From: a virus
Virus record (IMG/VR): IMGVR_UViG_3300037069_000805
Span: 32,001-96,000 of that record
Length of the DNA stretch: 64,000 nucleotides
Direction: 5' to 3' (one strand)
Shown in pieces: positions 7,013-26,413 of this stretch (within the stretch, counting starts at the first letter, position 1; every line of letters begins with the position of its first letter). Made by a program: the position numbers and the translations under genes. The notes beneath the pieces are model-generated. The model was not told the DNA's origin. It searched no databases and saw only the letters and a list, made by a program, of their open reading frames with translations.

Positions 7013-7546
7013 TTAATATATTTTACAACCTTTGCTAAAATTATCTATTGCCCATAATGGTTGTAGATTAGTATAGTTTGATAAAATATATAATTCATCA
7101 ATATTATTGGCTGATGATAATGGTATTATATGATCAATATGCCATTCTCCATAATTATTCCAGTTCATATTTTTAGTAAATTTATTTTCTAAATGAATTT
7201 TTAGTTCACTAAAAGAACAACCTAATAATAAATGTTTTGAATTATCTTTTTTCCATTTTTTTCTTTTAATAGCATTAGAAGTGCGAGAATGTATATTAGA
7301 TTTTAATCTAAAAAGAATATCCTCATTTCTTTGTTTTTTTCTTTTATTTTTTAAAATTTTTTGAAAATATTCTTTACTATAATTAATGTTATATTCTTTA
7401 AAATAGGATATGTTTTTCAATCTATATTCTTTATTATAATTATTTTTACAAAGTTTACATTCACTAGAATAACCATCACTTTTATTTTTATTTTTATGAA
7501 AATCAAATAATTCTTTATTATTTTTACAATTAGTACATTTTTTCAT
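7013..7546 (-). CDS. HNH homing endonuclease with N-terminal CxxC...CxxC finger
   Basis: CTNC/CKLC; WHIDHIIPLS...NYTNLQPLWAIDNFSKG. Confidence 0.85.
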   Translation of the reverse strand: MKKCTNCKNNKELFDFHKNKNKSDGYSSECKLCKNNYNKEYRLKNISYFKEYNINYSKEYFQKILKNKRKKQRNEDILFRLKSNIHSRTSNAIKRKKWKKDNSKHLLLGCSFSELKIHLENKFTKNMNWNNYGEWHIDHIIPLSSANNIDELYILSNYTNLQPLWAIDNFSKGCKIY

Positions 7547-7566: not shown

Positions 7567-10500
7567 CTAATACATTCCAAACATGGATTTTTGATAGTTA
7601 TATAAATCTTCACTATCTTTATTCCAGTTATTAAGAACAGGTATTAATTTTTCCCATGATCTTATAACTTTTAATTTACCTTTATTAGGACCAGATTTAT
7701 ATTCTTCTTCCCAATCAAATACATTAATAGTTTTACCAATAGCATCTAATGAATTTTCTAATATTCTCATTGAAGGAATTGGTGATCTAAGTAATTTAAT
7801 ATTAGCAGATGGATTTCTATATTGAGCTAATTCTGATTCCATTCTATTTACTTGGTATAACCAGAAATAAAGTACTTTATCATCATCTCCATCTCCTGCA
7901 CCACCTAACATAGAACCTAATAACATAGCTGTAAGTGGTAATATAACAGCTGTAGCAACTAATTCACCAACAGCATATCTAATATTACCTCTTTCTAAAT
8001 CAGATAACTTATTCCACTCTTTACTAATTATATCAAATTTCATTTGTTTTAAAGCAGGTATTACTCCATGAGCTAAGTATCTCATTGCTGAAGTATATAC
8101 ACCTTCTTCATAATTTTGTAAAGCATAAGAATATTGTTTAAATTTCTCAGGATCTGCGTCAATTTCTTCTTTAGATTTTAATGAATTAGTAAAACCCATA
8201 TATCTCTTAGTTCCCATTTCAACAAAGAATCTTCTAAACATCATAAATAATTTACCCCACCAATGTCTTAATGCTTCTGGTTGAGTATTTGGATCATAAT
8301 TACCAAAACAATCCATTATTTTCTTTTTAATTAACAGATTAATTTTTGCCTTACCACCTTCATTAACTTTAGAAGTTAGTGATTGTGTAGTATAAATAAC
8401 TTTATCGTTAATTTTAAGAATACCATCTTCTTTATCAATGTATAACATGTCTAATAAAGATGCAGATTTAGATTTATCTACAACATTACCATTCTTATCA
8501 ATATAATTATTATCAGCATCCATTACTTTAATACTGTCTAATACAGAAGCAGTAAGTACAGATTGTACCCAGTGTTCACCACCAGAATGCATAAATTGTA
8601 ATGATTCAGCATTTACATAAGATTTTAAAACACCTTTTTTAATAAAAGCTTCCATACTATTTCTATCAAATCCAAATGTATCAAACATTCTATTCATTTG
8701 ATTTATAAATGATTTTTCAACAGGTTGACCTAAATCTTTCATAGTATTTGCAAATTCTTTAAAATATAAAGCTTCTGCTTTAGCAAGATTTGTTTTATTA
8801 ATTACATTCTTACTTAACCCTTCTAAAAACATCATTGCTTTAGCATTTAATATATTCTGAGTAGCTGCAAACTTATTTAAACTTAATCCAATAGTAGCAA
8901 GTGAACCATTCATAAATCCAATAGCTTTATTAACGTCTACAGGACCTAATTTACCAGCATAATGATGTCCAATATCATAAATGTTTTTTTCCATTAGAGA
9001 TTGTAATCTTTTATAAGTATTACTATTCTCACCAGTATCTAACATTTGTGGATTGTTTTTATTAAATATAGATTTAAGAACTTCTTTACCACTTTGAGTT
9101 TTATAATATTTTTTAGATTTAGCAATATCTGTAATAGTATTTAATTCTCTTTCTCTTTTAGACTTTTCTTTATAATTAATACCATTTAGATATTGTAGTC
9201 TAAATACTGTCATTAAATCTAATGATTGATCTTTAGGATCTATTTGACCACTATATCTAACAGGAATATTATAAAGAATATTATTATCATTATCAGTCCT
9301 ATAATTAAAATCTATATCATCAGCTTTAATTGTAGTTAAATCTGTCCATTTATCTTTTATAATACCTTTAATATCACCACCTAATACTCTTTCTAAGTCA
9401 GATTTAGTAATAGAAGGTAATTCATAATAATAAGCATTATTCTTTTTATTACCTACAAATTTCTTTTTAGATTGTTTACCAAATGTTACATCTGTAACTA
9501 AATCTTGAATTTCTGTAAAAGTTTTTAATACATCTTTTTCAATATCAGATAAATTAACTTTATTTTCATATTTATCTATATTTTTTAAAAGTGTATATTT
9601 TTCTTTAGCTTTAGTTCCAAATTCTATAGAATTAGTTGTATGAGTTTTTAATATTTCATCTATTTCAGAATCAATTTTATTTAATTTATCTTTAAATTCT
9701 AAATTATGTGTACCAAGTAAATAATAATTACCAGCTTTATCTTGTTGAATAATATTTTTATAAAGTTTAGTTACATCTTCTGTACCTTTCTCTTTAACTA
9801 ATTTATCAAACAAACCACTTAATTCAAATTCTTTTTGTCTAACTTGATCATTAATAGCCTCCTTAACCTCATTTAATATCTGATTAAATATTTGTATTAG
9901 ATGAGAATTAGTATTAATAGAATCATTAAAGAATTTAGTGCCAGATGATATATCATATGCAGGACTATCTATTAAATTATTTACATAAGATTCAGCATCA
10001 TTTTGAATATCTTCTTTATATGTAGTATTCATTTGTCTAGCAATCCATACATCTTCAGATTCAGTTCTAGGAATAACTTTATAATCAATTTTTAACTGAT
10101 CTTTCCATTTAGTTTCTAATTCTGGTAAATATTGAATATTAGATATTGTTAATTTTAAAGCTTTTTTAAGATAAGAATTATATTCAGTTTTTAAACTATC
10201 ATATGTTCCTATAATATGTTTTAATGCATCATCCATTTCATTAATATCATCATTAGATAAACCAAATTTATTTTCTACTTTAATATCAGCTAATAAATCT
10301 TGAATATCTTTAGCAATAGTAAATGAATCTAAATATTTACTATAATGACCAATAGTTTTTAATATTTCTTCTTCAGTAAAAGATTTTCTATCAAAACTTC
10401 TTTCTAGTGAATTAATATCTTCAAATAATGATTTAGTATAAAATGATACAGCTTCTAATTGTTTAGCAGCATCAAAGTTTTCTAAAGCTTTTAATGTTTC

Positions 10501-12636
10501 TTTAAATTTATCTGAAAATTTTATAAATTTATCTTGTTGTTCACCTTTAGTAGTTCTATTACCAATTGCATTATAAAAGTTAATATTTTGATCTAATATA
10601 TCTTTAGCTTTATTAATTACATGAGTAATCTTCTTATCAATAGTATTTAAGTCATAATAACCTTCTTTCTTGTCTTTTAAGACAGTTTTAAACATTGCTG
10701 GACTATATATATCACCTTCAAAAGAAAAGCCTTTAAAATCACTATTATCATTATTCTCAACAAAGTCATTTACTTTATTAATTAATAATGCAGCATCTAT
10801 AAGTTCATTATTAGATAATGTTCTAGGTAATCCAAATAATCTTCTAATAATATCTTTTAATTCATTCCAGAAAGATTTATTTTGTCTTAATTCAGCTTGA
10901 AATTCTGGATTACTAAATATCTCAGCTACAAATTCATCAGTATTAGTAAAACCATACTTAGAATTTATATCACCTCTTTCATTTGCTACAAACTTATGTT
11001 GTTCAAATGCTTTTTCAATAAATTTTTTAAATTCTCTTTCTTCAAAAGTTTGAGGATTTTTTAATGCTTTATGAGTAATAGCGTGAACAACTTCATGTAT
11101 AAATGATTCAATAGTTTGTTCTTTAGATAAAGATTCTAACGACTCTTTAGCTATAATTATTTTATTAAGATTAGCATCGTAAGCCATAGCTACAGAACTA
11201 TCTACATAATCATATCTTTTAGACATGTTTTCTAAAGTATCTATTTCTACAGTAGCTTTAGTATTATTAATAATCTTTTGACCTTTTTCTAATAAAGTTA
11301 TAAAATTAGGTTGTAAATTCTCTTTATTTTGATTAATGATATTAGTTAAAACTTCTTCTACAGTATAACTATATTTTTCTTCAGAATTAAATAATAATTG
11401 TTTATTAGATTGAGTATTATCTGTTTTAATATTTGTAGTTGATGTATTTTCACCAGTAGTAAATATTTCTTCTTTTTTATTTTCATCTAATAATTTATTA
11501 AATAATATAGTAGAATTATCTCTTTCATTATCTAAAATAACTTCATTCCAAGTATTATCATATTCGTCAGTAATTTGATTAGAATTATAATAATTTTGTA
11601 AATTTTTTCTAATTTTATCTTGACTTAATTTTTTAAATGATTCCAAACTTTCAATTTGTTTTTCTAAATCATCAATTTTATCTGTAATGTTAAATAATTG
11701 ATTATCATAAATTTCTTTAGTTATTTCATATTCTAAAGGACCAACTCCTTCTGGAGTATTATTATCTATTTTAATATCTCCAATTTTAGAAGTAGTTTTA
11801 AAATTTAATAATTGTTTTCTTGCTAATATTAATTTTTTATTTAATTCTTCAATTTTATTTTCAAAATATTTATTTATATTTTCAAGTTCTCTTTTAGCTA
11901 TTTTGTCAGTAATTTTATTATTTAATTTTACAACTTTATTTGAAATTATAAGTTGGTATAAATCTTTAATTGTAGAATCTTCAGGTATTTTTATATTATC
12001 GTTAATTCCAAAAAATTCTTTAATAAAATCTAAAATTTTACTTAATATAGAACGTTTAACTTTTAAATCTTCATTTTTAAATTCTTTTTCAATTGCTCTT
12101 ACAATATATTCTTCTTGTTGCCAAGATTTTGGCATATCGGAATATGTTTTATTATTTAAAAATGAAGATATTTCTGGATATAATCTTTTAGAATCATTAT
12201 AAATTTTATTAAATAATTCAGGATTTGAAGAATTTAAATAAGTTACAAAAGGATGTGATATTTCATGTAAAAATGTACTAGCATTTACTTTGTTTTTATT
12301 TAAATTTACAGTATTTGTATTTTTATCATATTCACCATATGTTATAAAACCATCTTCTTTATCTTTAAATTCAACAAGGTTTAAATTTACTTTTTTATCT
12401 TTTGCAAAATAATTTAAACTTTTAATTATTTTTTCATCATTATCTTCATTAATTAAATTTAAATTATTTTGATAATTTATTTCATTAGATTGTTGTAATT
12501 CATCAATAGTAGGAAAACTATCTACACCATTTTTATCCTGAAAGATAGAAATTTTAGCTTTCAGGATAATTGGATTTAAATCTGTTTGTTCTAATAGCTC
12601 TTTGTATTGAGCATCATTTATATTTATACAATTCAT
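7567..12636 (-). CDS. large virion cargo/ejection protein with two zincin-like (HExxH) domains
   Basis: 1689 aa downstream of the vRNAP; LHEISH and IHEVVH motifs; hydrophobic segment near the C-terminus. Confidence 0.75.
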   Translation of the reverse strand: MNCININDAQYKELLEQTDLNPIILKAKISIFQDKNGVDSFPTIDELQQSNEINYQNNLNLINEDNDEKIIKSLNYFAKDKKVNLNLVEFKDKEDGFITYGEYDKNTNTVNLNKNKVNASTFLHEISHPFVTYLNSSNPELFNKIYNDSKRLYPEISSFLNNKTYSDMPKSWQQEEYIVRAIEKEFKNEDLKVKRSILSKILDFIKEFFGINDNIKIPEDSTIKDLYQLIISNKVVKLNNKITDKIAKRELENINKYFENKIEELNKKLILARKQLLNFKTTSKIGDIKIDNNTPEGVGPLEYEITKEIYDNQLFNITDKIDDLEKQIESLESFKKLSQDKIRKNLQNYYNSNQITDEYDNTWNEVILDNERDNSTILFNKLLDENKKEEIFTTGENTSTTNIKTDNTQSNKQLLFNSEEKYSYTVEEVLTNIINQNKENLQPNFITLLEKGQKIINNTKATVEIDTLENMSKRYDYVDSSVAMAYDANLNKIIIAKESLESLSKEQTIESFIHEVVHAITHKALKNPQTFEEREFKKFIEKAFEQHKFVANERGDINSKYGFTNTDEFVAEIFSNPEFQAELRQNKSFWNELKDIIRRLFGLPRTLSNNELIDAALLINKVNDFVENNDNSDFKGFSFEGDIYSPAMFKTVLKDKKEGYYDLNTIDKKITHVINKAKDILDQNINFYNAIGNRTTKGEQQDKFIKFSDKFKETLKALENFDAAKQLEAVSFYTKSLFEDINSLERSFDRKSFTEEEILKTIGHYSKYLDSFTIAKDIQDLLADIKVENKFGLSNDDINEMDDALKHIIGTYDSLKTEYNSYLKKALKLTISNIQYLPELETKWKDQLKIDYKVIPRTESEDVWIARQMNTTYKEDIQNDAESYVNNLIDSPAYDISSGTKFFNDSINTNSHLIQIFNQILNEVKEAINDQVRQKEFELSGLFDKLVKEKGTEDVTKLYKNIIQQDKAGNYYLLGTHNLEFKDKLNKIDSEIDEILKTHTTNSIEFGTKAKEKYTLLKNIDKYENKVNLSDIEKDVLKTFTEIQDLVTDVTFGKQSKKKFVGNKKNNAYYYELPSITKSDLERVLGGDIKGIIKDKWTDLTTIKADDIDFNYRTDNDNNILYNIPVRYSGQIDPKDQSLDLMTVFRLQYLNGINYKEKSKRERELNTITDIAKSKKYYKTQSGKEVLKSIFNKNNPQMLDTGENSNTYKRLQSLMEKNIYDIGHHYAGKLGPVDVNKAIGFMNGSLATIGLSLNKFAATQNILNAKAMMFLEGLSKNVINKTNLAKAEALYFKEFANTMKDLGQPVEKSFINQMNRMFDTFGFDRNSMEAFIKKGVLKSYVNAESLQFMHSGGEHWVQSVLTASVLDSIKVMDADNNYIDKNGNVVDKSKSASLLDMLYIDKEDGILKINDKVIYTTQSLTSKVNEGGKAKINLLIKKKIMDCFGNYDPNTQPEALRHWWGKLFMMFRRFFVEMGTKRYMGFTNSLKSKEEIDADPEKFKQYSYALQNYEEGVYTSAMRYLAHGVIPALKQMKFDIISKEWNKLSDLERGNIRYAVGELVATAVILPLTAMLLGSMLGGAGDGDDDKVLYFWLYQVNRMESELAQYRNPSANIKLLRSPIPSMRILENSLDAIGKTINVFDWEEEYKSGPNKGKLKVIRSWEKLIPVLNNWNKDSEDLYNYQKSMFGMY

Positions 12637-13349
12637 ATTTTTTCTATTTTAAAACACTCTGTTGAACTACCTAAAAATTTGTTATTAGGAATGTAGTGAA
12701 AATTTTTTAGATATTTTATTAATAATTTTTCAGAAGTCCAAATATTTTCTGGAGTATCTTCTATTTGAGATAACATTTCTAACTTATAACCTGTTTTAGA
12801 AAAACCACTATATCTTCTATTTATATTTTTATGTTTAGTTATACCTATTTTAAAAAAAGACTCATTTTCATTGTATATATTTAATAAATATAAATAAGCT
12901 TTATTATTAATACATATAGCTTTCCAGTTTTTAAATTTGAAATTATTATAATCTCTTGGATAACATTCTGGACATCCTTTACCTCTTAGAACATTTCTAG
13001 CTATCGTTTTAAAATGTCCATGATGATTACAAGTTAAAATAACTTCATTCAGAATTCCTCTAAATTCAAGTTTATCAAATGAATATAAATCATTGTAAGC
13101 TTCTTTAACATCAAATATATATTTTTCTCTTCCTATTTTTAATTTAGTCTTTGATTTATTAATATCTCCACATTTTTTACAATTTCTAGAATGTGTTAAA
13201 AAATTATTAACAATAATTTCAAAATCACCATGTTTTTTACATGTAATTGTTACTTTATCATTATAAGATATAAAGATACTTTTTGAATAATCATATTTAT
13301 TTCCATGAGTGTCCTTACATCTTTTAATAAATTCTTCTTGTGTTATCAT
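12633..13349 (-). CDS. homing endonuclease (Zn-binding repeats plus GIY-YIG-like nuclease)
   Basis: Repeats ITCKKHGDF / LTCNHHGHF with CxxC; C-terminal YLYLL..FFKIGITK...TECF; likely start MITQEEF at 13349. Confidence 0.8.
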   Translation of the reverse strand: MITQEEFIKRCKDTHGNKYDYSKSIFISYNDKVTITCKKHGDFEIIVNNFLTHSRNCKKCGDINKSKTKLKIGREKYIFDVKEAYNDLYSFDKLEFRGILNEVILTCNHHGHFKTIARNVLRGKGCPECYPRDYNNFKFKNWKAICINNKAYLYLLNIYNENESFFKIGITKHKNINRRYSGFSKTGYKLEMLSQIEDTPENIWTSEKLLIKYLKNFHYIPNNKFLGSSTECFKIEKI

Positions 13350-13350
13350 A

Positions 13351-16300
13351 TTAACAAGATTTTTTCTGCCATAATATTGTAGCTTTTTCTTCTTCAGATA
13401 GATTATTATATTCTTGTTCAGATAATTCATTAAAAGTATTATCTTTAGGTTCTATTGAAGTTTTTTCATTACTAGGTAATATACTTCTTTCTGTTTCATT
13501 CATATCTATATCATAAGCTACTTCAGGTAGCAATGTTTCATTATAATATTTTAACAATCCTTCTTTATTAGCAATATCATTTTGAGCTAATAATGATCTA
13601 TTGTTTTCATCAAATGAATATTCAAAATATTTATTACCTTGTTTATCTTTAAAACCTTTAGTATAAGTTCTTACATAAATTGGATCATGATGTTGGTCAT
13701 ATCCTATAAGTTTAAATAAATTATCATTCTGTTTAATATATCTTCTAACCTTATTAACAAGTTGAGAATCTAATACAAATCCAAAATCTTTACTACCTCT
13801 TAATATTTGATTAGTAAATACGTTAGGAACATATAAAGAATTATCATAATTATTCTGATAAAGCTGTTCTATAAAATTAGTATCAATATGTTTAAGTTCT
13901 CTTGAATTTAAATAACCATTAATATCTTTTTCAATAAAGAATTCATTAGGTATTAATGTAAAAAATTGTCCTTTATTCATATTAAATCCTGATGTAATAT
14001 AAGAATATTTAACTAAGTTTTCAGCCATTTCTTTATCATTATTTAACATATCTAACCAAGACTTAGTAAGTTCTTGTTGAATATCAGCACTTTTTCTTCT
14101 ATTACTTAATGTAATAAATAATTTATCATCTTTATTTTTAGATAAATCTAATTCTTTAAGAATAGCATATCTATTAGACTTACTATCTTTAAAAGCACTA
14201 AATTCTTTAACAAAATCATTAGATGTTAAATGTGTATATTCTGGAGAAGATGTTTTAATACCTTCAAATCCAGATAGTACATATGATAAGTATTTCTGTT
14301 CTAAGTCTTTACCAAAATCTTCATCCATTAACTTAGTACCTTTAACATCATTACTAATGATATCAAAGTTATTTATAATACTAGATTGAGTCATAAAGAA
14401 TAATTTAGGATTTTTAACAACCATATTTATCATATCAAATATAGAATTATTTGTATAATGACCCAATAAAGTAGGTTTACCATTTCTTTCTAACTTGGTT
14501 TCAAATCCTAATAATTGACCTTTATCTTTATTATTTAATAAATCATTAATAATATTATTTCTAGCAACTAATGAAGTTACTGTTGAACCTATACCAGATA
14601 CATCTTGTGTAGAACCATCAATATTTTTCTTCATTTTTTTAGCATCTTCTTTTAATTTAAAGAATGTAGATAATACTTTCATCTGAAATTCAGGAGTATC
14701 ATTTAATAATAATGAATTAAACTCTGGAAAATAGCTCGGTTCTATCTGTTGTGATTTAACAAATGAAGCCTGTCTAGTACTAACTATATTAATAAATCTA
14801 TCAAAACTTTCTTTATATTGTATAAGTTGTTCTTTAGTAAATAAGGCTTTTTTAGTTCTTTCACCATCTTCAGTTACAAACTTTTTAGCTGATTGTAACT
14901 TAGTATTAATTTCATTATATGTTAATTTCTTATAATCAGTTTCAAAACTATTTTTAAATACTAATTTATGTAAATCTGCAACAGATATATTTCTATCACC
15001 AAATGGTAATTGTAATTGGAAATCTTTAGAATTTCTTAATACATCTAGTTTAAATTTATTTTCAATGTTACCAGTATCATTATTAATTTTAGATTCTTTA
15101 TTGTTTTGAAATTGTATAAAACTTTTAAGAATTGGTTGTTTTAAGAAAGCATTTACTTGAAATGGATGTGCTCCAGCTCTTAATAACATATTACCAACAT
15201 TTGTAGTAGCTGTATTCCAGTTACCTCTAGTAATATAAGGATCTTTAGCTATATCTACAAAAGCATTAAGAATAGCTGATAATGAATTAGCTATCTTGAT
15301 TTTTTTTAGACTTTCTAAATCAGAAGCACTTATTTTAGAATCAGATAATTCATTATATTTTTTAGAATATAATTTTAAATCTTCATCTGATAATTCTTCT
15401 GAAAACTCTTCATCAAATTTAGTTTCACCTAATTCATTTTTAAAACCAACACCTAAATAATAACCATTAAATCTAAGATTAGCCATAGTACCTCTAACAT
15501 GATCTACTAATGAATTAGCTTCCATTCCAACTCCAGCTTTACCAGCTTTATATTGAGCTTTAATATATATATCTTTAAGTCCATCAAAATGATATGTATC
15601 ACTAGTTTCATCTTCTTTATTAAAAGCTAAAATATCATTTTTAATAAAGTCAAAATCAATAGGTGTCATTAAATCATTTAATACATCTGGACTAGTAAAT
15701 ACAGCTTTATAAGCTTCAATAAGATCATTTTCTAATGAATCTTTATATACTAACTTACCATCTACCTTATTAAATGAAGGTATCATCATATACATTTTAT
15801 CAATATCGTAGTCACTACCAGTCTTAGTAGTAATACCTGTATAAGCAACAATAGTATCACCCATTCCTTCTGGTAATATACCAGCTATTTGAAATGCATC
15901 ATTTGAAGAAATTCCTTGATTAGGTATTCTATATCCAATAATATTATTTAGTATCTTATAATCAATTAAACCACCTTCATATTCATTAGTTTCAGGATTT
16001 AATGTACCAAATAATATTTCTGGTTTATTAGTATAATCTCTATAATTAGGAATATGTTGTGCTATTAATGAACCTGGTATTAATATACCTGCTGGTCTAA
16101 TCAATGGTTTACCATTAGGACCTTTTAATATATTACCAATACCATCTTTTTGTACTGTATAAGGTTGTACTTTATTTTCTGACCAAGGTGTCCATAAAAC
16201 TCCTTTTTCATTTGCTTCAGTTTTATTTAAACCAAAATCAGACATTTGAATAAAAGAACCACCATTAGTTTTAATCTTAACAACTCTATCTAATACAATA

Positions 16301-19300
16301 GATGCAAACATATTCATAATCTTACCATATGCTTGTGGTATACCTACTGGATTAATTTGAGCTTTTAAACCGTTAATAATATTTTTATTACCTTCTTGTT
16401 CAATTAATTGATTGGCTAAACTATCATAAAATAAAGATACATTATTAATTTTACCATTCTCATCAATACCTAATTCTTTATATAGTTGTTTAACACCTTT
16501 ATTAGATAATTGTCCAACTATATTATTAATTTTATCAATTAATTGACTACCAGTTATATCTTCACCTTTATAATGAAACATTTTATCTAAATTAAAAGAT
16601 AATCCTTGAAATACATTCTTTTGTATCTGAGAACCTGTATCAGTATCATGTACACCCTTAGTAGGTAAATCTTGTTGAAGTTTCCAACCTGAATTTAAAA
16701 GTTCTTGTTTATTTAAAGTAAAATCTTTTTCTAATTCAGTTTCATTACCATCTTTATGTAATCTAGTAGTATTTAAAGAACCTACTTTAATACCATCTAA
16801 TGTAATAACCTCATGTATCTGATCATTATAATGACTAGCTTCAGTCATTTTATTATACATATTCTCTAAAGATGTTCCTCTAATTAAAGAGGGAATAAGT
16901 ACAGCTTGTGAATATTTAAGCATTGTAGGAACTCCATCTTTTACTTCAAAATATACACCTTTTAAAGGTTGCATTACAAATTTTAACTCTTTTTCAGTAA
17001 GAGTTTCTTCATTCTTTGTAATTTTATTATATACATGTTCATAATTATCATTCCATTTACCCAAACCATTCATAATAAACTTCCATCTTGTAGGAGTTAT
17101 CCATGCTTGAGCATCTGCAATATTAATATTATTACCCTTATATTCTTTACCTTTATATGTAATACTATTAGTAGAACCAATATAATGTGCAGCAATTTCT
17201 GGTTTTAATATTTTATTATCAACTAATTCTTGAAAATAATCTGTAAATGGTGAGCCACCTTCTACTGAAGCAATTGAAGCAATATTAAAATATTTATCAT
17301 TAGTATTAAGATATTGACCATCTGTATAAGTAGCAGGTACTCTTTTCTTATAATCAACCATATTTTTATAATATGCATAATCACCTGAAAAAGCTTTAGA
17401 ATATTCTATTTGAGAAATTAAACCATTAATATATACATCTGCAGCAATTTGCTCTCTTATTTTATAAGATGATAATTGATTTTTATCTGCATATTTTTGA
17501 TATATAGCACTATCAATAGCATAATTTTCAGTATCTAATTTATCAGTACCTTTAAATAATTCAATATCTAACATGGTATTTAATGTACCATTAATATTTT
17601 CTTTAATATTTTGTTTAATATGTTCTTTAATTGCAATTTTTATTCTACTTGGAAATGTATTCATTACAGGAAATCCAGTTACAGAATCATATAATATAAC
17701 ATCATTACCTTCTAAATCTTTAATTTTAGGTAATGTGGATAACTTTCCTTTATTAAAGTCAACAGATAATGAAGGAAATAAAGCTGATTTAAGACCATTT
17801 TTATTACCAAGATGATAATGAATATATAACTTACTATTATCTTTGTTTAAATCAGCTTGTTTTATCTCATAAGCTACTTTATTCATCCTATCATACTCAT
17901 CTATAAAGTAATTATACAATACTTCAATAGCTTCATCATTAATAATATCGTTTTCAGAATCATAATTTGATTCAATAAATATTTCTTTAGGATATTCTAT
18001 TAGTTTTTGTTGAGATTTATCTGCTGGAGTAACTGTTCTAATAATAGGATTATTATTTTTAACAAAAGATAATAAATTATTAATATAACTAGCAATTTCA
18101 TCATTAGTAGTTATTTCTTTATTATCTACAGCATTTTTAAAATCTTCAGTTTCCTGTAAATTATTAAATATACCTACATTAAAATTTTCTAATCTATCTT
18201 TTATTACATTATCTTTTTCAGCTGGAGTTAAATATTCTAAATCTGAAGCTAATAAATAATTTAATAATTTAGATCTTTTATTAAATGGTGTTGATTCTAA
18301 ATGTTGTCTAATTAATTCAGGATGTTTTTTCCATTTTTCAACCTTAATAGTTAAATAATCTGGTTTACTAAAAACCCATTTGGTAGTTCCTGCAGAAAAT
18401 ATAGTTGATTCAGAACCTTCTGTAAAATATTTTGCTTCAGCATTAGCTAATTGTTTAAATATATTTTCATATTTTAAAGCATTACCTTCTGAAGGTTTAA
18501 TATTTTTGTTAAGTATATTTTTGGAAAAGTATTGTAATTTATTTATTAAACTATTTGTAGCAAGTTTTATAGAATCTGTATCATATATATCTTCTAGATT
18601 ATTTCTAAGAAAATAATTCATACCTTCTTCTGTAGTAACTAAACCTAAATCAGACAATATTTTAACTAAAGGATTTAATTTATGTAATAATTCAGTAGAT
18701 ATTAAATCTTCTTTAACTATTTTAGTATTAAATTCTTGTTTAAAATCATTAATTTTATCTGAAACTATTTTAAATTTTTCATATTTAAAATTATCGTTAT
18801 TAAGATATATTTCATTAAATTTAATACCCCATTCTTCCAATATTCTAGAAGCTTTGGAATTAGTTTCAGTAACAGGTAATACTCTTTGTGAATAATTAGT
18901 TAATAAATTATCTTTAGTATATTGCTTATCTACTTCAAATGTATAAAATTCATTTTTTGACAAATCAAATGCTTGTACAAATTTATTCTTAGTATTTAAA
19001 CTTAAAGGTTTGTTAGTACTTTCTAATATATTAAGTACATCTTTAATGAAAGGTTGAAATTCTTTCTCTTTTTCTAGTATACTTATAAATTCATTAAACT
19101 TATTTTCATCATCTTTAACTACAACATTATTTAATACTTGTAATAGATGTCCATATACTTGTTCAAATGTATAAAATGAATTACTATCTAATACATCATC
19201 TACCTCATTAACATTTGGTATTAAAGATAACATAAGTTTAACATCAGAATTAATATTTTCTTTATATGATCTTTCATATGATGATACATTAAAAGAATGT

Positions 19301-19953
19301 TCTCTTGTATCATCTTGAACAGTATTCATATCATCAATATTATTTTCATTTTCATTATACTTAATCTTAATAGATTTAAAATAATCTATAACCTCATCTT
19401 TAATCTCATCAATATTATCTAATAATTTAGTGATACGTTGTGATTTGATTTTAGCTATAGGTGTACTAATTGTAGATAATTCTTTAAGTTTATTATGTAA
19501 AGTATCTTCTATAAATTTACTAATATTAGTATTACTAGTTTGATTAAAATCTAAATCTTCAAATTGTTCAACTAATCTAAAATTATTTTTAATATATTGA
19601 GCACCTAAAGTTTTCTTAAGTTTATTAATACTATTAGATGTTAATACTTTAGTTAAACCTTTTTCAGGGAAAAATACTCTTTCATTATTTTTATTTAAAT
19701 AATAATGTCTATTATAGTTTTCATCTTTAAATAACTTAGGTTCACCATTATCATCAACTCTGTCTTGATTAATTTCCTTAACTTCATTCTGATAATCTTC
19801 TTCATAATTACCAAATTGATTTATAAAACTTTCAGATTTAAATTGTGTATAATAACGATTAGCTAACAATTCATCATTACTAGTTAATTTAAGTAAACTA
19901 TTAAATAAAATAGATTCATTATCATTTGTATTTGTTTGTCTTTTACAACTCAT
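13351..19953 (-). CDS. virion-packaged single-chain DNA-dependent RNA polymerase (crAss-like, phi14:2 gp66 type)
   Basis: 2200 aa; GYRIPNQ and GSDYDIDK (catalytic DxDxD at about 15799-15813); middle gene of a giant-gene trio. Confidence 0.92.
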   Translation of the reverse strand: MSCKRQTNTNDNESILFNSLLKLTSNDELLANRYYTQFKSESFINQFGNYEEDYQNEVKEINQDRVDDNGEPKLFKDENYNRHYYLNKNNERVFFPEKGLTKVLTSNSINKLKKTLGAQYIKNNFRLVEQFEDLDFNQTSNTNISKFIEDTLHNKLKELSTISTPIAKIKSQRITKLLDNIDEIKDEVIDYFKSIKIKYNENENNIDDMNTVQDDTREHSFNVSSYERSYKENINSDVKLMLSLIPNVNEVDDVLDSNSFYTFEQVYGHLLQVLNNVVVKDDENKFNEFISILEKEKEFQPFIKDVLNILESTNKPLSLNTKNKFVQAFDLSKNEFYTFEVDKQYTKDNLLTNYSQRVLPVTETNSKASRILEEWGIKFNEIYLNNDNFKYEKFKIVSDKINDFKQEFNTKIVKEDLISTELLHKLNPLVKILSDLGLVTTEEGMNYFLRNNLEDIYDTDSIKLATNSLINKLQYFSKNILNKNIKPSEGNALKYENIFKQLANAEAKYFTEGSESTIFSAGTTKWVFSKPDYLTIKVEKWKKHPELIRQHLESTPFNKRSKLLNYLLASDLEYLTPAEKDNVIKDRLENFNVGIFNNLQETEDFKNAVDNKEITTNDEIASYINNLLSFVKNNNPIIRTVTPADKSQQKLIEYPKEIFIESNYDSENDIINDEAIEVLYNYFIDEYDRMNKVAYEIKQADLNKDNSKLYIHYHLGNKNGLKSALFPSLSVDFNKGKLSTLPKIKDLEGNDVILYDSVTGFPVMNTFPSRIKIAIKEHIKQNIKENINGTLNTMLDIELFKGTDKLDTENYAIDSAIYQKYADKNQLSSYKIREQIAADVYINGLISQIEYSKAFSGDYAYYKNMVDYKKRVPATYTDGQYLNTNDKYFNIASIASVEGGSPFTDYFQELVDNKILKPEIAAHYIGSTNSITYKGKEYKGNNINIADAQAWITPTRWKFIMNGLGKWNDNYEHVYNKITKNEETLTEKELKFVMQPLKGVYFEVKDGVPTMLKYSQAVLIPSLIRGTSLENMYNKMTEASHYNDQIHEVITLDGIKVGSLNTTRLHKDGNETELEKDFTLNKQELLNSGWKLQQDLPTKGVHDTDTGSQIQKNVFQGLSFNLDKMFHYKGEDITGSQLIDKINNIVGQLSNKGVKQLYKELGIDENGKINNVSLFYDSLANQLIEQEGNKNIINGLKAQINPVGIPQAYGKIMNMFASIVLDRVVKIKTNGGSFIQMSDFGLNKTEANEKGVLWTPWSENKVQPYTVQKDGIGNILKGPNGKPLIRPAGILIPGSLIAQHIPNYRDYTNKPEILFGTLNPETNEYEGGLIDYKILNNIIGYRIPNQGISSNDAFQIAGILPEGMGDTIVAYTGITTKTGSDYDIDKMYMMIPSFNKVDGKLVYKDSLENDLIEAYKAVFTSPDVLNDLMTPIDFDFIKNDILAFNKEDETSDTYHFDGLKDIYIKAQYKAGKAGVGMEANSLVDHVRGTMANLRFNGYYLGVGFKNELGETKFDEEFSEELSDEDLKLYSKKYNELSDSKISASDLESLKKIKIANSLSAILNAFVDIAKDPYITRGNWNTATTNVGNMLLRAGAHPFQVNAFLKQPILKSFIQFQNNKESKINNDTGNIENKFKLDVLRNSKDFQLQLPFGDRNISVADLHKLVFKNSFETDYKKLTYNEINTKLQSAKKFVTEDGERTKKALFTKEQLIQYKESFDRFINIVSTRQASFVKSQQIEPSYFPEFNSLLLNDTPEFQMKVLSTFFKLKEDAKKMKKNIDGSTQDVSGIGSTVTSLVARNNIINDLLNNKDKGQLLGFETKLERNGKPTLLGHYTNNSIFDMINMVVKNPKLFFMTQSSIINNFDIISNDVKGTKLMDEDFGKDLEQKYLSYVLSGFEGIKTSSPEYTHLTSNDFVKEFSAFKDSKSNRYAILKELDLSKNKDDKLFITLSNRRKSADIQQELTKSWLDMLNNDKEMAENLVKYSYITSGFNMNKGQFFTLIPNEFFIEKDINGYLNSRELKHIDTNFIEQLYQNNYDNSLYVPNVFTNQILRGSKDFGFVLDSQLVNKVRRYIKQNDNLFKLIGYDQHHDPIYVRTYTKGFKDKQGNKYFEYSFDENNRSLLAQNDIANKEGLLKYYNETLLPEVAYDIDMNETERSILPSNEKTSIEPKDNTFNELSEQEYNNLSEEEKATILWQKKSC

Positions 19954-19954
19954 A

Positions 19955-22900
19955 TTAATTTCCTTTACAAATTTTCTTAATTTCTTCTGGTTTGTAGTTT
20001 AACTCTATAATTTTTTCAAAATCTACATAAGTTAAATCATTATCAGATTTATTATTTTCATCTTTATATATATCCATTCCTTTTAAGAATGTTTCATCTT
20101 CAAGAAATAAATCTATTTGTGGTTCAGATAATTTAGTATTATCTTTTTTAACATCTTCAGTTAATTTTTGTGCCTCTTTATTTTCCACTGTACCAGGTAT
20201 TTCACTTTGTGATTGCAAAGATAGTGATTTTTTTTCAGAATTCCTAGTATTTTCTACTTTATTTTCATTACCAGTAGCAACATTAAAGAAATCAGTAGCT
20301 AAATTCATTTCTTCTTCTGGACTTAAATTAGCATCTTTACCTACATATTTATCTAAGTAATCATTTTGTGCTTTAGTAAATTTAGTTGTACTAGGATTTT
20401 TTATAATAGGTTTAGTTTCTAAGTAAATGTTAGTATAACCTCCAAATGTTGGTTTTAAATTACCATTTTCATCAGTTCCTACGACAGCATTTGTATTTAA
20501 TACATTATTTTGAATAAGATAGTTTAAATAATCTATATTATGTGTATTTAAAGCTTTAGTTCCAATATTTTTAGGATTACCAAAGTTTATACCTCTTCTT
20601 TTTTGAGTAGTTAAAAACTCTATTAAATCACCCTCAACAGCTTCTAATTCATCTAAACTATTAACACTTACATTTCTAAATTTAAATGCCCCTGTTTTAT
20701 AATCAAATCTAAATTGTGATTTTTCATTTTCAGAACCATCGTAAATTAATAAATCAATTATATCTTTTAATGAAATTTCATTTTCATTTTTAACAGATTT
20801 AATCAAATCATATTCTATTGGTATAGTTAATTTAATTTTATTTACTAAATCAGGTGCGTCTTTTTCAATATCTTTTAATAAAGTAGCTTTATTTAAGGTT
20901 GTAGGTCTATTATTATTTTTAAATCTATATCTAGTAATATCAAATAATAAATCAGCCTGATTAAAATCTAATTTTAAAGTATTTAATTTTAAATGAAACA
21001 ACTCACCATTAGTCATTGGTATTTTTAAATAAAATTCTCCAGAAGATAAAGTTTCTCCATTAACATTATATTTAGTTTCAATATCTCCTTTAGGATTAAT
21101 TAAAGTACCAAAATCTTGCACATTAAATAAATTCTCTCTAATATATTGATAACCTTTTTTAGTTAAATTACCATTTTCATCTACTAATTTTAATGTTTGA
21201 AATGCTTGTAATTGAGAAATAGTATTCTCTTTTACATTTCCATTTTCATCTGTATCTGTAATTAGCGTACCAGGCATTTGTCCTGCAATTTTAATAGACA
21301 TATTATTTAAAGAATTACCATCTAATATAGAATTAACTATCAGTAATCTACTATCTCTATCTTTGCTATTAAATATTTCAGCACTAACTTTAGTAGAAGG
21401 TAGTGTTTCCATTGGCGCAACTACATTAGAGTCCTTTATACCTACATTTAAAGGAAGATAATTAGTTAAGAACTCTCTAAGTTCATCTATAGATTTAATG
21501 TTGTTCTTAGGACTGTTAATTATGTATTGTATTGTTTCTTTAATACTATTACTTTGTAAATATGTAGCAATTTCTGAAGCAAGTTTTAAATTAGCATTAT
21601 CTCCAGGATTAGTGTTTATACTAAAATTTAATACTCTTCCTGTTTTATCTTCAGGAGTATTTTCATAATCAATCCAATCTTGATTTATAAATTCAAATTT
21701 TACTCCAGTCTTTTGATTTTTACTTATTAGTTTTAATTTATTTTGTTGTAAAGTTTTATACTTAGTATCACCTGCTATTTTTTTACTTTCATTAATATTA
21801 TCTTCTAAATTTACATCATCTACTTGTTCAAATGAATTATCTGGATTATCAGTTAAAGTTCCACTAGGAGTTGTTGAAGTATTACCTTCATTTTCAACTT
21901 CATCTTTTTGGTTTGATATAGTAGCATCTTCTTCTTGTTTTAAAGACTCTTTAGAATCTTCTATTGCTTTGCTAATAATTGGATTATCTTTTTGTTCTTT
22001 AGATAATTTATCTGTAAAATCTTGTAAATCTTTACTAGTAGGTTGTTTTCTTATGTTATCTATAACTTCTTGATGTTTTTCTGTATTTTCGTCAGAAGTT
22101 TCTTTTTCTAGATTTTCTCTTTGGTTTATTAAACTATCAAAATAATTCTGATTAGCCTTTTTATCCCAAATAACATCATTAACTAATTCAGATATTTCTT
22201 TTAGATTATTTTTAGATTTTTCTATCTGCTTATCTAAATGTTCTATTACATTACCTTTATTTTCTTTTTTGTATTTATAGATTTCTTCAGTAACACCTTC
22301 TTTGTAATCAGGATTTAATTCTAATTCTTTTTTAGGCAAATAATCTAAATTCTTTTCAAATTCAATTTTTTGTTTCTCTAATTTATCTAATTTTTTACGC
22401 TCATGATATTCATCTGACTTTTCACCTATATAAGTGTTTAATAAATTCATATAGTATGATTTATAGTCATTATCATTAGCTTTTACATTTTTAGGTTGTA
22501 TTTTTAATGCTTTTTGAAAGTCATTAAAAGCTTGAACATGTTTTTGTAAATATTTAGCTTTATCTATAACTCTTTCAATAGATTCTCTATTTTCTTTATT
22601 TTTATTTTTACGTTCTTTTTCTTCTAATGTATTATCAGACTCTTGTGTATCTTCTGAGAACAATTGTTTTAAATGTTCATGTAAAGCGTCAATACCCATC
22701 TCGTCCTCACCTATAAAATTATTAATTAATTGAGTTTCTGCAGAATGTTTTAAATCTTCAATAAGTTGTTCATTACCATTTTTAACAGCTAAGTCGAATA
22801 ATTCAGACTTACCTTCCATTATATTTAAAGCATCATGTACTTTTTTAACATTTTCTGGAATTATAATTTTATTACCTTTTTTATCCTTATCAAATACTCT

Positions 22901-24592
22901 TTCTTCTTTACCAGTTTCTTTATTTAGTTCTACATGGCTTTTATAAATATCTGTATTTAATATTGTATTATAATCAGATGAATGAAGATTTATTTTGTCT
23001 ATTAATTTATTTGTTTTTTCTCTATCTTGTGCATCATGTTTCATTCCTCCATATACACCAAAAGCACCACCTTGTACAGCTCCTAATAATACTGAAACCT
23101 GCCCTTCAGTTGTTCCTAATGTTTTTATATAATCAGATCCTAATGATATTAAATCTAAATTTAATTCGCCATCATCTGTAATTAAATTATTAGAATCTTT
23201 TTTACCATATAATCCTCTTTTTACAATTCTATTTTCTAAAGTAGTTTGAATACCTTCTTCCCATAAACCTTCAGATGCAGCATTTTTAACAAAATGTCCT
23301 AATACATCTTTAACTACATTTTTACCACTTCTTTGCGCTACATTCTCTAATTTAGGTATTTCTTTTTCAGTAGTTGATGTTATAGCTTTACCTAATTTCT
23401 GTAGTGGTTTATATTCTGAATTTGCAATTTTACCACCAACTTGATCAACTAAGTTAGTTAAAGTTTTATTTTCAGCTGTTTTAACTAAAGACTTAGCTCC
23501 TTTACCATATAATAGTCTTGTCTGAATATAATCTGGACCAGCCAATACAGCTACATTATCCCAAAATGATGTAGACATTGCATTAGCAACTCTTTCTTTA
23601 AATTCATTTTCAGCTACATCATCTGATACTGTTGCTGATTTTTGATTATATTCTTCGTCAGTTATTTGATGAGTTCTTCTTTTTATATCTAAATCAGCTA
23701 ATTCATTTAGAACTTTTTGTTGATAATCTGGTTGTGCTTTTCTATTTTTAATCCATTTAGGTTTTTCTTTCATCATATCATCAGAAACACCTTTTGATTC
23801 TGCTCCAGCTTCAAAAAATACATTTGCAGCAGTTATACCTATCTCATTAACTTTTTCAGCAGTAAAACCTAATTTTGTTAATTTTGAAATTGTATCTCCA
23901 GTATCTTTAGCGTAACCAACTCTATTTAACGCTTTAGCTGATAAACCTAATAATTCTTCACTTATTCCCATAGCTTTAAATGCAGCTCCAGGAGCCATAG
24001 CTGATAACATATAACCTAAACCATCTGCACCATCAGTAGCAAAAAATGAAGTAGATTTCATTTTATCAATAACATTACCATCCTGGACTGCTCTTGATAT
24101 ATATACTGGTAATAAATCACTATTAATTTTTGCATTTAGATTATCCAATGCTTTTACACCAACATTATTAAATGTTGTATCTAAAAAATTATGTTCATCC
24201 TTACCTGTTGTAAGATCACCAATATTTTCAACAGTTCCAGCTATAGCACCACCTAAGTAAGCTACTGTTTTAGCCATTTCTATACCTGCTTTATCAGCAG
24301 TTCTAATAAGACCTAAACCAGCTTGTGCTAAACCAGATTGTTCATTAGCTCTATGTTCATTAATAGAACCTTGAACATCATCTTTTCTAATATCAGTTGC
24401 CCAGTTTAAACCTTCGTCATATTTAGAATCACCGTATCCAGTATTTACACCAAGTAATGAAGTGTTTATTTTACTATAAACTTGCTTCATTTTATTTGGA
24501 GTATCTTGTTTTAGTCCTAATTGATCAGCTAAACCCTTTTTTGGAGGATCTGTAAACTCATTATCATAAGGATTGTTTTGTAATAAACTCAT
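19955..24592 (-). CDS. large virion cargo/ejection protein
   Basis: 1545 aa directly upstream of the vRNAP; Gly/Ala-rich hydrophobic segments and coiled coils. Confidence 0.75.
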   Translation of the reverse strand: MSLLQNNPYDNEFTDPPKKGLADQLGLKQDTPNKMKQVYSKINTSLLGVNTGYGDSKYDEGLNWATDIRKDDVQGSINEHRANEQSGLAQAGLGLIRTADKAGIEMAKTVAYLGGAIAGTVENIGDLTTGKDEHNFLDTTFNNVGVKALDNLNAKINSDLLPVYISRAVQDGNVIDKMKSTSFFATDGADGLGYMLSAMAPGAAFKAMGISEELLGLSAKALNRVGYAKDTGDTISKLTKLGFTAEKVNEIGITAANVFFEAGAESKGVSDDMMKEKPKWIKNRKAQPDYQQKVLNELADLDIKRRTHQITDEEYNQKSATVSDDVAENEFKERVANAMSTSFWDNVAVLAGPDYIQTRLLYGKGAKSLVKTAENKTLTNLVDQVGGKIANSEYKPLQKLGKAITSTTEKEIPKLENVAQRSGKNVVKDVLGHFVKNAASEGLWEEGIQTTLENRIVKRGLYGKKDSNNLITDDGELNLDLISLGSDYIKTLGTTEGQVSVLLGAVQGGAFGVYGGMKHDAQDREKTNKLIDKINLHSSDYNTILNTDIYKSHVELNKETGKEERVFDKDKKGNKIIIPENVKKVHDALNIMEGKSELFDLAVKNGNEQLIEDLKHSAETQLINNFIGEDEMGIDALHEHLKQLFSEDTQESDNTLEEKERKNKNKENRESIERVIDKAKYLQKHVQAFNDFQKALKIQPKNVKANDNDYKSYYMNLLNTYIGEKSDEYHERKKLDKLEKQKIEFEKNLDYLPKKELELNPDYKEGVTEEIYKYKKENKGNVIEHLDKQIEKSKNNLKEISELVNDVIWDKKANQNYFDSLINQRENLEKETSDENTEKHQEVIDNIRKQPTSKDLQDFTDKLSKEQKDNPIISKAIEDSKESLKQEEDATISNQKDEVENEGNTSTTPSGTLTDNPDNSFEQVDDVNLEDNINESKKIAGDTKYKTLQQNKLKLISKNQKTGVKFEFINQDWIDYENTPEDKTGRVLNFSINTNPGDNANLKLASEIATYLQSNSIKETIQYIINSPKNNIKSIDELREFLTNYLPLNVGIKDSNVVAPMETLPSTKVSAEIFNSKDRDSRLLIVNSILDGNSLNNMSIKIAGQMPGTLITDTDENGNVKENTISQLQAFQTLKLVDENGNLTKKGYQYIRENLFNVQDFGTLINPKGDIETKYNVNGETLSSGEFYLKIPMTNGELFHLKLNTLKLDFNQADLLFDITRYRFKNNNRPTTLNKATLLKDIEKDAPDLVNKIKLTIPIEYDLIKSVKNENEISLKDIIDLLIYDGSENEKSQFRFDYKTGAFKFRNVSVNSLDELEAVEGDLIEFLTTQKRRGINFGNPKNIGTKALNTHNIDYLNYLIQNNVLNTNAVVGTDENGNLKPTFGGYTNIYLETKPIIKNPSTTKFTKAQNDYLDKYVGKDANLSPEEEMNLATDFFNVATGNENKVENTRNSEKKSLSLQSQSEIPGTVENKEAQKLTEDVKKDNTKLSEPQIDLFLEDETFLKGMDIYKDENNKSDNDLTYVDFEKIIELNYKPEEIKKICKGN

Positions 24593-24601
24593 ATTTTATA
24601 T

Positions 24602-26413
24602 TTATTTACCTGTCATTAAATCTTCCATTTCAGTAGAAAATTCAGCAGGTGATAATTTTTCAGCTTTAGCGTTTCCTTTTCTCATATCTATAGTACCATC
24701 TTCATTATATCTAATTTGAGTACCTTTTAAGTTTTCATTTCCAGAATATCTACCTGTAGCCGTAACCCAATCACCAAATTTCTGAACTGCATTTTTATAA
24801 ACTTGATTTATTTCATACGCTCTTTTGAATTCTGGTTTTGCAATTTCATTTAATGTTCTTCCAATTGCAACTTTATGAACTGGATTACCATCTTTGTCAA
24901 CTACTAATGCTCTATGAGCCATTACACTTTGTTCTTTATTATTTTCAAATTTATAATTGTTATAATTAACAGGTGAATCATATCCAATATATTGAACTTT
25001 TTCACCATCTCCTAGTGTAATTTTTTCACCAGTTTTTATATCAATCATTGGTCTAAGACCAGCTTTAGTATCTAAAGTAAGTTGTTGATCTCTATCTGCT
25101 GGAGCTTTACCTGATAATTCTCCCATAAATAATTGATCTTCTCCTGTTGTATCAGGTCTTAATATATCATTACCTATAGTTAATTTATCCATATATTTTT
25201 TCATATATTCACTAGCAGCAGCTGCAGTTTTTGGATCATTTAAATCAGCATTAGATGGTAATTTATGAGAACTTTTTAATTTATTAACTGCTACTTCATA
25301 AGCTCTTTGAGATAATTTATCATCAAATATATCTTTATAAGTATACTTATTAGGATTTTCACCTGGTTTATATGGAGTATTTCTACCTTGTAATCCAGTA
25401 TGAGAATTAGCTAATGCATAAGAAAATCCAACTTTACTTTTACCTATTTGACTAACATCAACATCATTTATTCTTCCTGTTAAAGTATGAGTACTATCTG
25501 GATCAAATATACCAGATGGTTCTGCTTTATCTTCTTTTTTCTTAGCATTTGGATCACCTATAAATTGTGCATTTTCTCCTCTGTTATCAACTACTCCAGT
25601 TTTTAACATTGAATTAACTCCATTTACTAATTGAGATTGAACATTTGCATCATTAGCACCTTCAAATTTTCTTGAATCACTCCATTCTTTTTCACCAAAT
25701 TGATTTTGTAACAGTCCTAATGCACTTTGTAAATTAGGTTTATTAGATGTTTCTATTCTTCTTCCAGAACGATCAACCATTATCATTCCACCAAATGGTC
25801 CTTGTGCAAAACTGTATCCATTAGCTCTCATTTCACCAGTAACTTGTTCTCCTAATAAATCATGAACACTTTTAAGTTTATCTAAAGTTTCAATTTTCTT
25901 AGGTGCTCCAAGTAAACCAATGTTTGATATATTATTTTGACTATCAAAGCCAGTATATTTATCTTTTGAACTAAAATCATTCCATGCATTTAATGCACGT
26001 TCCATTGACCAACCTTTTGTTTTAGTAGCATCTTCTAGAAAATCTTTACGATTTTCCATATATACTTTCTTAGCATTATTTATTTGTCCAATCCTTCCAG
26101 TTGGTGCAACTAAATTTTGATATTCTCTATTTAAAGCTATAGTTTTACCAACCATATCATTATTAAAACCATTTGTTGCTAAATCAGATGCTTGTTGATC
26201 TATTTTTGATTCAATATTATTTTTTAATTTAGCTGCTTCTTCCAAATGTACATCTAATGGATCTACTTTTGCAAGTCCACCAATAATTTCTTGTTGTTGT
26301 GCTAGTAATGCATCATGCTTTTGTCTTTTTAACATAGGAACAAAAGCTAATTCTTGCATGGTCTGAGGAGTATATGCTGAAGGTGAAATCTCTGTGTAAC
26401 GGTTAGTTGCCAT
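24602..26413 (-). CDS. putative virion cargo protein
   Basis: 603 aa, no Cys seen, located in the cargo cluster. Confidence 0.6.
   Translation of the reverse strand: MATNRYTEISPSAYTPQTMQELAFVPMLKRQKHDALLAQQQEIIGGLAKVDPLDVHLEEAAKLKNNIESKIDQQASDLATNGFNNDMVGKTIALNREYQNLVAPTGRIGQINNAKKVYMENRKDFLEDATKTKGWSMERALNAWNDFSSKDKYTGFDSQNNISNIGLLGAPKKIETLDKLKSVHDLLGEQVTGEMRANGYSFAQGPFGGMIMVDRSGRRIETSNKPNLQSALGLLQNQFGEKEWSDSRKFEGANDANVQSQLVNGVNSMLKTGVVDNRGENAQFIGDPNAKKKEDKAEPSGIFDPDSTHTLTGRINDVDVSQIGKSKVGFSYALANSHTGLQGRNTPYKPGENPNKYTYKDIFDDKLSQRAYEVAVNKLKSSHKLPSNADLNDPKTAAAASEYMKKYMDKLTIGNDILRPDTTGEDQLFMGELSGKAPADRDQQLTLDTKAGLRPMIDIKTGEKITLGDGEKVQYIGYDSPVNYNNYKFENNKEQSVMAHRALVVDKDGNPVHKVAIGRTLNEIAKPEFKRAYEINQVYKNAVQKFGDWVTATGRYSGNENLKGTQIRYNEDGTIDMRKGNAKAEKLSPAEFSTEMEDLMTGK

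Follow-up and report, generated by a model that had tools for sequence, protein, structure and literature searches.

Introduction

Crassviruses are the most abundant phages of the human gut, and how approximately 0.6 MDa of protein, including a 2,200-residue RNA polymerase (RNAP), passes through their narrow tail is an open question. The question is raised here by a 64,000-nucleotide (nt) stretch of viral DNA (positions 32,001 to 96,000 of the IMG/VR record IMGVR_UViG_3300037069_000805; "the window"), an AT-rich sequence (23-30% G+C) whose minus strand carries the structural and cargo gene block of a crAss-like phage. Three giant proteins of this block, named A (1545 amino acids, aa), B (the RNAP, 2200 aa) and C (1689 aa), are nearly devoid of cysteine, and most of the few cysteines that they do have sit at the ends that adjoin in gene order. 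On the basis of these positions an original prediction proposed that the three proteins are linked head to tail by disulfides, threaded out of the particle in sequence and released in the reducing cytoplasm. We find the facing-end terminal cysteines to be conserved across the Crassvirales, and consider below whether they probably reflect such a chain.

The cargo proteins of two cultured crassviruses serve as a reference for this locus. In phi14:2, gp65, gp66 and gp67 are virion proteins, and the gp66 RNAP is translocated into the host (Drobysheva et al., bioRxiv 10.1101/2020.03.07.982082). Packaging in the virion and delivery to the host were established for phi14:2 and crAss001 by mass spectrometry and rifampicin experiments (bioRxiv 10.1101/2020.03.07.982082; Bayfield et al., PMC10172136), and by orthology with these phages the cargo proteins encoded in the window would likewise be packaged and delivered. 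The crAss001 cargo proteins are unresolved in Bayfield et al. (PMC10172136).

Results

Most cysteines of A, B and C lie at the protein ends that face each other

Genes A (19955-24592), B (13351-19953) and C (7567-12636) all lie on the minus strand. The product of A, a predicted virion cargo protein, is the positional orthologue of phi14:2 gp67 and crAss001 gp47, as judged by synteny with phi14:2 g067. B, the predicted virion RNAP, is the orthologue of phi14:2 gp66; it matches the g066 catalytic RNAP subunit with 31% identity across 90% of the query (tblastn), and its DFDID catalytic motif occupies residues 1381-1385 (15799-15813). C, also a predicted virion protein, is the orthologue (blastp) of phi14:2 gp65, a zincin-like "RNAP-associated" protein. 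Its HEVVH motif (residues 514-518; 11083-11097) lies inside a SprT-like match (residues 488-543) that falls below the Pfam cut-off, and this region agrees with the zincin-like domain reported for phi14:2 gp65.

Translation of all open reading frames (ORFs) of the block showed that the original cysteine count for the three proteins was correct to the codon. The sole cysteine of A is residue 1542, fourth from the C-terminus (codon 19967-19969, ...KKICKGN). B has two, Cys3 (19945-19947, MSC) and its very last residue, Cys2200 (13354-13356, ...KKSC*), and no other. C has Cys3 (12628-12630, MNC) and a single internal cysteine, Cys1443 (8308-8310), which is not conserved and aligns to an isoleucine in locus L037, the nearest relative. 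Both smaller cargo proteins of the block (603 and 577 aa) contain zero cysteines, as had also been stated. Under uniform placement, the probability that four of the five cysteines would fall within the 16 positions that are at most 4 residues from the four inner ends is 3.7e-10. Genes A and B abut in the window, as they do in many relatives (TAATATG), such that their facing cysteine codons lie within ~20 nt of each other.

Terminal cysteines are conserved across the Crassvirales

To view this pattern across the order, ~150 IMG/VR loci were fetched with two RNAP alignments, all of their large ORFs were tabulated, and the set was dereplicated (~80-90 lineages). Cysteines were counted as terminal when found in the first 8 residues (N-end) or the last 10 residues (C-end). 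In the dereplicated lineages the C-end of A carries a cysteine in 77 of 79 cases, the other two having it at C-11 and C-31, and the N-end and C-end of B do so in 76/86 and 85/90 cases, respectively, as does the N-end of C in 88 of 89. The two outer ends of the trio never carry one (N-end of A, 0/60; C-end of C, 0/87). Control ORFs of the same loci (n = 566 after dereplication) have a cysteine in 5.7% of their N-ends and 9.9% of their C-ends. Internal cysteines make up 0.006% of A, 0.048% of B and 0.026% of C, as compared to 0.92% in the control ORFs. The tabulation of orthologous trios thus bears out terminal cysteines that are conserved on a cysteine-depleted background.

The two cultured phages follow the same rule. 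The only cysteine of phi14:2 gp67 is its last residue, gp66 has Cys3 and Cys2179 (of 2180 residues), and gp65 has Cys3 only. In crAss001, gp47 has only Cys2339 (of 2341), gp50 has Cys5, Cys1334 and Cys2404 (of 2412), and gp49 has only Cys5.

Sequence alignments single out the same residues. In the C-terminal 250 aa of A, aligned over 42 orthologues with a mean column identity of 11%, the cysteine is the sole invariant column. The alignment of B has M1, C3 and DFDIDKMYMM (residues 1381-1390) invariant, and in the alignment of the B head (N-terminal 450 aa) only C3, F43 and P72 are invariant. The 603-aa cargo protein has cysteine-free positional counterparts in nearly all loci.

All exceptions to the terminal-cysteine rule can be accounted for; they comprise gene fusions (see below), RNAP halves split by introns or homing endonuclease genes, a mis-called start (L135), a recoded stop (L127, TAG read as Gln) and L008. 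L127 had at first the look of a true exception, with no terminal cysteine and 10 internal ones; this was rejected, as the TAG = Gln reading gives full-length A, B and C proteins that obey the rule. L127 (8372-25646) is a crAss-like contig in which TAG is a sense codon, the recoded reading yielding three full-length ORFs with 10, 32 and 73 in-frame TAG codons, and its A is encoded on the opposite strand. The RNAP fragment of L008 contains a C-end-like "ENCKGG" motif (Cys1656) 287 residues before its end; this may mark where the protein once ended, before read-through or fusion extended it.

The rule is kept at the protein level

It could be argued that the terminal cysteines have no linking role, and are a by-product of nucleotide signals at the gene junctions (translational coupling), of relaxed protein ends, or of a modification of single ends. 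The abutting genes of the window and of many relatives, with cysteine codons ~20 nt apart, are in line with this alternative, as is the weak constraint that is frequent at protein ends. However, both cysteine codons are in use at the terminal positions (TGT 295, TGC 31), and the spacing between partner genes ranges from -41 to 6169 nt. Inserted genes separate the partners in the window, L015 and L018, with one to three such genes in several lineages, and the rule persists across these insertions of 0.3-6 kb. It also persists where A lies on the opposite strand: the crAss001 gene for A (gp47) is on the strand opposite gp50 and gp49, yet its terminal cysteine is kept. The use of both codons, the variable spacing, the inserted genes and the strand inversion in crAss001 together indicate that selection acts on the protein and not on the DNA; a nucleotide-level junction motif is rejected on the grounds of the codon use, the spacing range and the opposite-strand A of crAss001. 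Relaxed ends, in turn, fit poorly with a cysteine that is the sole invariant column of an 11%-identical tail, and with the presence of a terminal cysteine in just 5.7-9.9% of control ORFs. An absence of any linking role therefore appears highly improbable, and given the comparative data we regard it as close to refuted.

The cysteine pair follows the gene break

Papers on cultured crassviruses describe polyprotein fusions in some phages, for which proteolytic cleavage was proposed (bioRxiv 10.1101/2020.03.07.982082; PMC10172136). Among our loci, the B-C fusions of L044, L050 and L098 (3142-3525 aa) have a single cysteine near their N-end, and the upstream A protein retains its C-terminal cysteine. 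The A-B fusions of L091 (4461 aa), L130 and L132 have a single cysteine as well, this time at the C-end. In these three and in the A-B fusions of L082, L094 and L112 there is no cysteine near the fusion point and the C-terminal one is kept; in the A-B fusion lineages the facing C protein keeps its N-terminal cysteine. On a FastTree tree of the RNAP core the B-C states need at least 2 changes and the A-B states ~5, exact numbers being uncertain because of the long branches of this tree.

The location of the A|B boundary itself differs between lineages. A homologous domain of ~250 aa, which we term domain X, is found near the C-end of A in crAss001-type phages (residues ~2030-2300 of crAss001 gp47; locus L083), and 490-550 residues inside B in L010-type phages (residues 550-824 in L010, 5489-14692); in fusions it is found in the middle of the protein. 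The presence of domain X in A or in B, depending on the lineage, indicates that evolution has moved the border between genes A and B by several hundred residues. Both types of A|B break are flanked by a cysteine pair, and the pair therefore follows the break wherever it is located.

These observations bear on the question of which ends would be joined to which. Pairing of different proteins in gene order is favoured, since the outer ends never have a cysteine, each side of a break has exactly one, and the cysteines of the remaining break are kept after fusion. Cyclisation of B combined with a bond between A and C is unlikely, because both cysteines at the remaining break are kept after a B-C or an A-B fusion.

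Alternatively, the cysteines may serve other partners: A and C could each form homotypic dimers (A-A, C-C), B could form rings or concatemers, or the ends could be anchored to portal, capsid or tail proteins that hold the cargo until ejection. Each capsid presumably contains multiple copies of every protein and the crAss001 tail has many inter-subunit disulfides (PMC10172136), and partners are not assignable from sequence alone. Such pairings, however, would leave unexplained the lack of cysteines at the outer ends (N-end of A, 0/60; C-end of C, 0/87), the presence of exactly one cysteine on each side of a break even where the break has moved, and the retention of both cysteines at the remaining break after a fusion. 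In addition, the bond found in cyanopodophage A4 (see below) is heterotypic, running from the C-end of one protein to the N-end of the product of the neighbouring gene. We consider other partners unlikely.

A homing-endonuclease-like gene separates B and C in the window

Between B and C lies a homing-endonuclease-like gene (12633-13349, minus strand; PHROG 681 endonuclease, 7e-38; T5orf172 and DUF723), as the original prediction had stated, an identification that the PHROG and Pfam matches bear out. Its longest ORF spans 12633-13430, and its likely start is the ATG at 13349. This free-standing gene is inserted exactly at the junction between the stop of B and the start of C (TAATATGA), leaving both flanking terminal cysteine codons intact. 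In L037 genes B and C are one base apart and have the same junction sequence without the insert (L037 17975-17995). The view that any link between the proteins must be post-translational was judged to be right.

Three free-standing homing-endonuclease-like genes were found within the cargo block, all on the minus strand (12633-13349, 26403-26966 and 28656-29186). One is of the T5orf172/DUF723 type and two are of the GIY-YIG type, one of these with NUMOD3. Each of the three encoded proteins holds 4-9 cysteines, unlike their cysteine-free neighbours.

In four loci the RNAP gene is broken within its catalytic DFDIDKMY sequence (L003, 14107-15038; L033, 11654-12597; L034, 14110-15053; L038, 14041-14290). 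The gap contains an endonuclease-like ORF of 214-217 aa in three of the four, and none in the 250-nt gap of L038. The interruption resembles a group I intron that carries a homing endonuclease and sits at the most conserved site of the gene. The pseudo-ends created by these insertions (L003, L033/L034 and L038) are without cysteine.

A putative disulfide chain of three ejection proteins

Taken together, our results are consistent with the following model. A, B and C are nearly free of cysteine, a trait common to ejected phage proteins, but keep one at each end that adjoins the next protein. In the assembled particle Cys1542 of A would form a disulfide with Cys3 of B, and Cys2200 of B with Cys3 of C. 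The three proteins would thereby form a single linear chain (A-B-C) of ~5,400 residues, and no side stub at a joint would exceed 3 residues. Such a chain would fix a 1:1:1 stoichiometry and could pass the tail in a set order as a single, partly unfolded thread, after which reduction in the host cytoplasm would set free the RNAP together with its partners. The block could then be joined equally well by a peptide bond (in the polyproteins) or by a disulfide, and this interchangeability would account for the frequency of fusions and fissions.

The facing cysteines might also join the same neighbours by other means, either by jointly holding a metal ion (Zn, Fe or Cu) or by a thiol chemistry other than a disulfide. 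All of our comparative results would fit any end-to-end tether equally well, the host cytoplasm in which the particle is assembled is reducing, and gut phages live without oxygen. Nevertheless, each joint offers just two thiols, and no conserved His, Cys, Asp or Glu stands beside the cysteines, whose flanks consist mostly of Lys, Asn, Ile and small residues. The sole solved case with this signature is, moreover, a disulfide: in the pre-ejectosome of cyanopodophage A4 (Anabaena phage A-4L), cryo-EM shows a bond between gp27 Cys1715 and gp26 Cys5 inside the capsid (PNAS 2025, PMC12002296). A metal bridge or other thiol link thus seems quite improbable.

Several points weigh against the disulfide chain. 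With several copies of each protein per capsid, A-A and C-C pairings, rings of B and A-B-B-C pairings are chemically possible. The surroundings of gut crassviruses are anoxic, and disulfides of purified virions could arise from aerobic handling. In L008 (7382-13213) there is a break within B with just one clearly terminal cysteine. A small fusing deletion would by itself delete both near-terminal cysteine codons, so that all the fusions demonstrate is that fused proteins can do without the pair, and the number of independent fusion events is loosened by the long branches of the tree. In A4 the bond fastens a helix within a cleft, at an ordered interface of a pentameric ring; in the C-terminal 250 aa of A nothing but the cysteine is conserved, so the geometry may differ from that in A4. 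The terminal cysteines are mentioned neither by Drobysheva et al. (bioRxiv 10.1101/2020.03.07.982082) nor by Bayfield et al. (PMC10172136), and neither describes a covalent link among the three proteins. More generally, our literature searches on crassviruses found no description of terminal cysteines or of a covalent link between cargo proteins, and a wider search for disulfide-linked ejection proteins contributed only the A4 study (PMC12002296). Co-folding of the C-terminal 250 aa of A with the N-terminal 450 aa of B (42-row alignments) gave a score of 0.22, below the mark of 0.32, the fold of the partner being itself uncertain; this result counts neither for nor against the chain.

On balance, we find it fairly probable that the facing terminal cysteines form an end-to-end A-B-C disulfide chain in the virion, a view that draws on comparative sequence data and on analogy with A4. 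The original prediction is thus partly supported: its pairing logic is backed by the pair-less fusions, the moved breaks and the crAss001 strand inversion, and A4 offers a solved precedent for the signature; the nature of the crassvirus bond, its partners, the ordered threading and the reductive release are what we infer.

Other features of the cargo block

Upstream of A lie the genes for the two smaller cargo proteins, both on the minus strand: the 603-aa protein (24602-26413) and cargo protein 1 (26969-28702; 577 aa), which matches the Pfam family crAss_CARG1 (PF25725, 2e-19). These are preceded by the gene for the muzzle protein (29667-33710; Pfam crAss_MUZ). The order muzzle - cargo 1 - cargo 2 - A - RNAP - C in the window is the order of phi14:2 g071-g065. 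In a search of PHROGs no family was found for A, B, C or the two smaller cargo proteins, and a Pfam search found none for A and B.

C has a second HExxH motif (HEISH, residue 124; ~124-128) beside the SprT-like HEVVH, and near its C-end a hydrophobic, transmembrane-like stretch (residues ~1555-1578; VGELVATAVILPLTAMLLGSMLGG) that is kept in L037. Just downstream of C, an ORF of 177 aa (7013-7546, minus strand) that is without a Pfam family has two CxxC pairs near its N-end (Cys 4, 7, 30 and 33) and resembles a zinc ribbon.

Discussion

If the chain exists, the disulfide thread would do the work of the polyprotein found in some lineages. Linking the cargo proteins covalently but reversibly, end to end, would account for their stoichiometric co-packaging and would supply a mechanism for their ordered ejection. 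A bolder version of this idea is that the RNAP is delivered in a redox-switched "train", a disulfide thread of at least 0.6 MDa that is ejected in fixed order and uncoupled by the reducing cytoplasm, and that this thread, together with A4, is a case of a general "terminal-cysteine code". We put this forward tentatively, as a possibility with the balance of probability somewhat against it. Such a code, if true, would be readable from sequence alone, so that the joined ejection proteins of uncultured podophages and their order could be predicted. For annotation, the sequence rule flags true protein ends, introns, recoded stops and mis-called starts in the cargo block.

The cultured crassviruses are among the closest known systems. 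The genes of phi14:2 are orthologous to those of the window and have the same order, and the terminal-cysteine rule holds in both phi14:2 and crAss001; the window differs from the cultured phages in its extra homing endonuclease gene between B and C. In crAss001, disulfides have been seen in the tail assemblies (PMC10172136).

Depletion of cysteine from ejection proteins has precedents outside of this order. The ejection proteins of Schitoviridae (N4 gp50; DEV gp71, gp72 and gp73), which include the N4 and DEV virion RNAPs, are cysteine-suppressed, with 0.00075% in gp71 homologues as compared to 0.865% in the proteome (PMC11445570), and the same study states that the N4 virion RNAP is free of cysteine, as the original prediction had stated. 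In T7, gp15 and gp16 have 0 cysteines in 2065 residues. The T7 gp14 protein (L165, 1229-1819) has a single cysteine, at position 2, and gp13 is without a facing C-terminal one. The ejection proteins of Schitoviridae and T7 have no paired terminal cysteines, so that their suppression is complete, whereas those of crassviruses retain exactly the cysteines at the ends.

A further comparison is with A4. Translation of the A-4L genes shows that the only cysteine of gp27 (1717 aa), the product of the upstream gene, is Cys1715 and that the only cysteine of gp26 (1114 aa) is Cys5, such that two large ejection proteins encoded by adjacent genes have the same signature of lone cysteines at facing ends as the A/B and B/C joints of the window. 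A phmmer search of A4 gp25-gp29 against the dereplicated crAss A, B and C sets gave no match at E ≤ 0.01, and as far as the sequences tell, the likeness between A4 and the crassviruses lies in this signature and not in detectable common descent. The A4 system consists of one joint between two proteins, with no RNA polymerase; in the crassviruses the two joints would link three proteins, with an RNAP of 2200 aa in the middle. The A4 paper does not generalise its disulfide (PMC12002296). The crassvirus rule is kept in every lineage sampled across the order.

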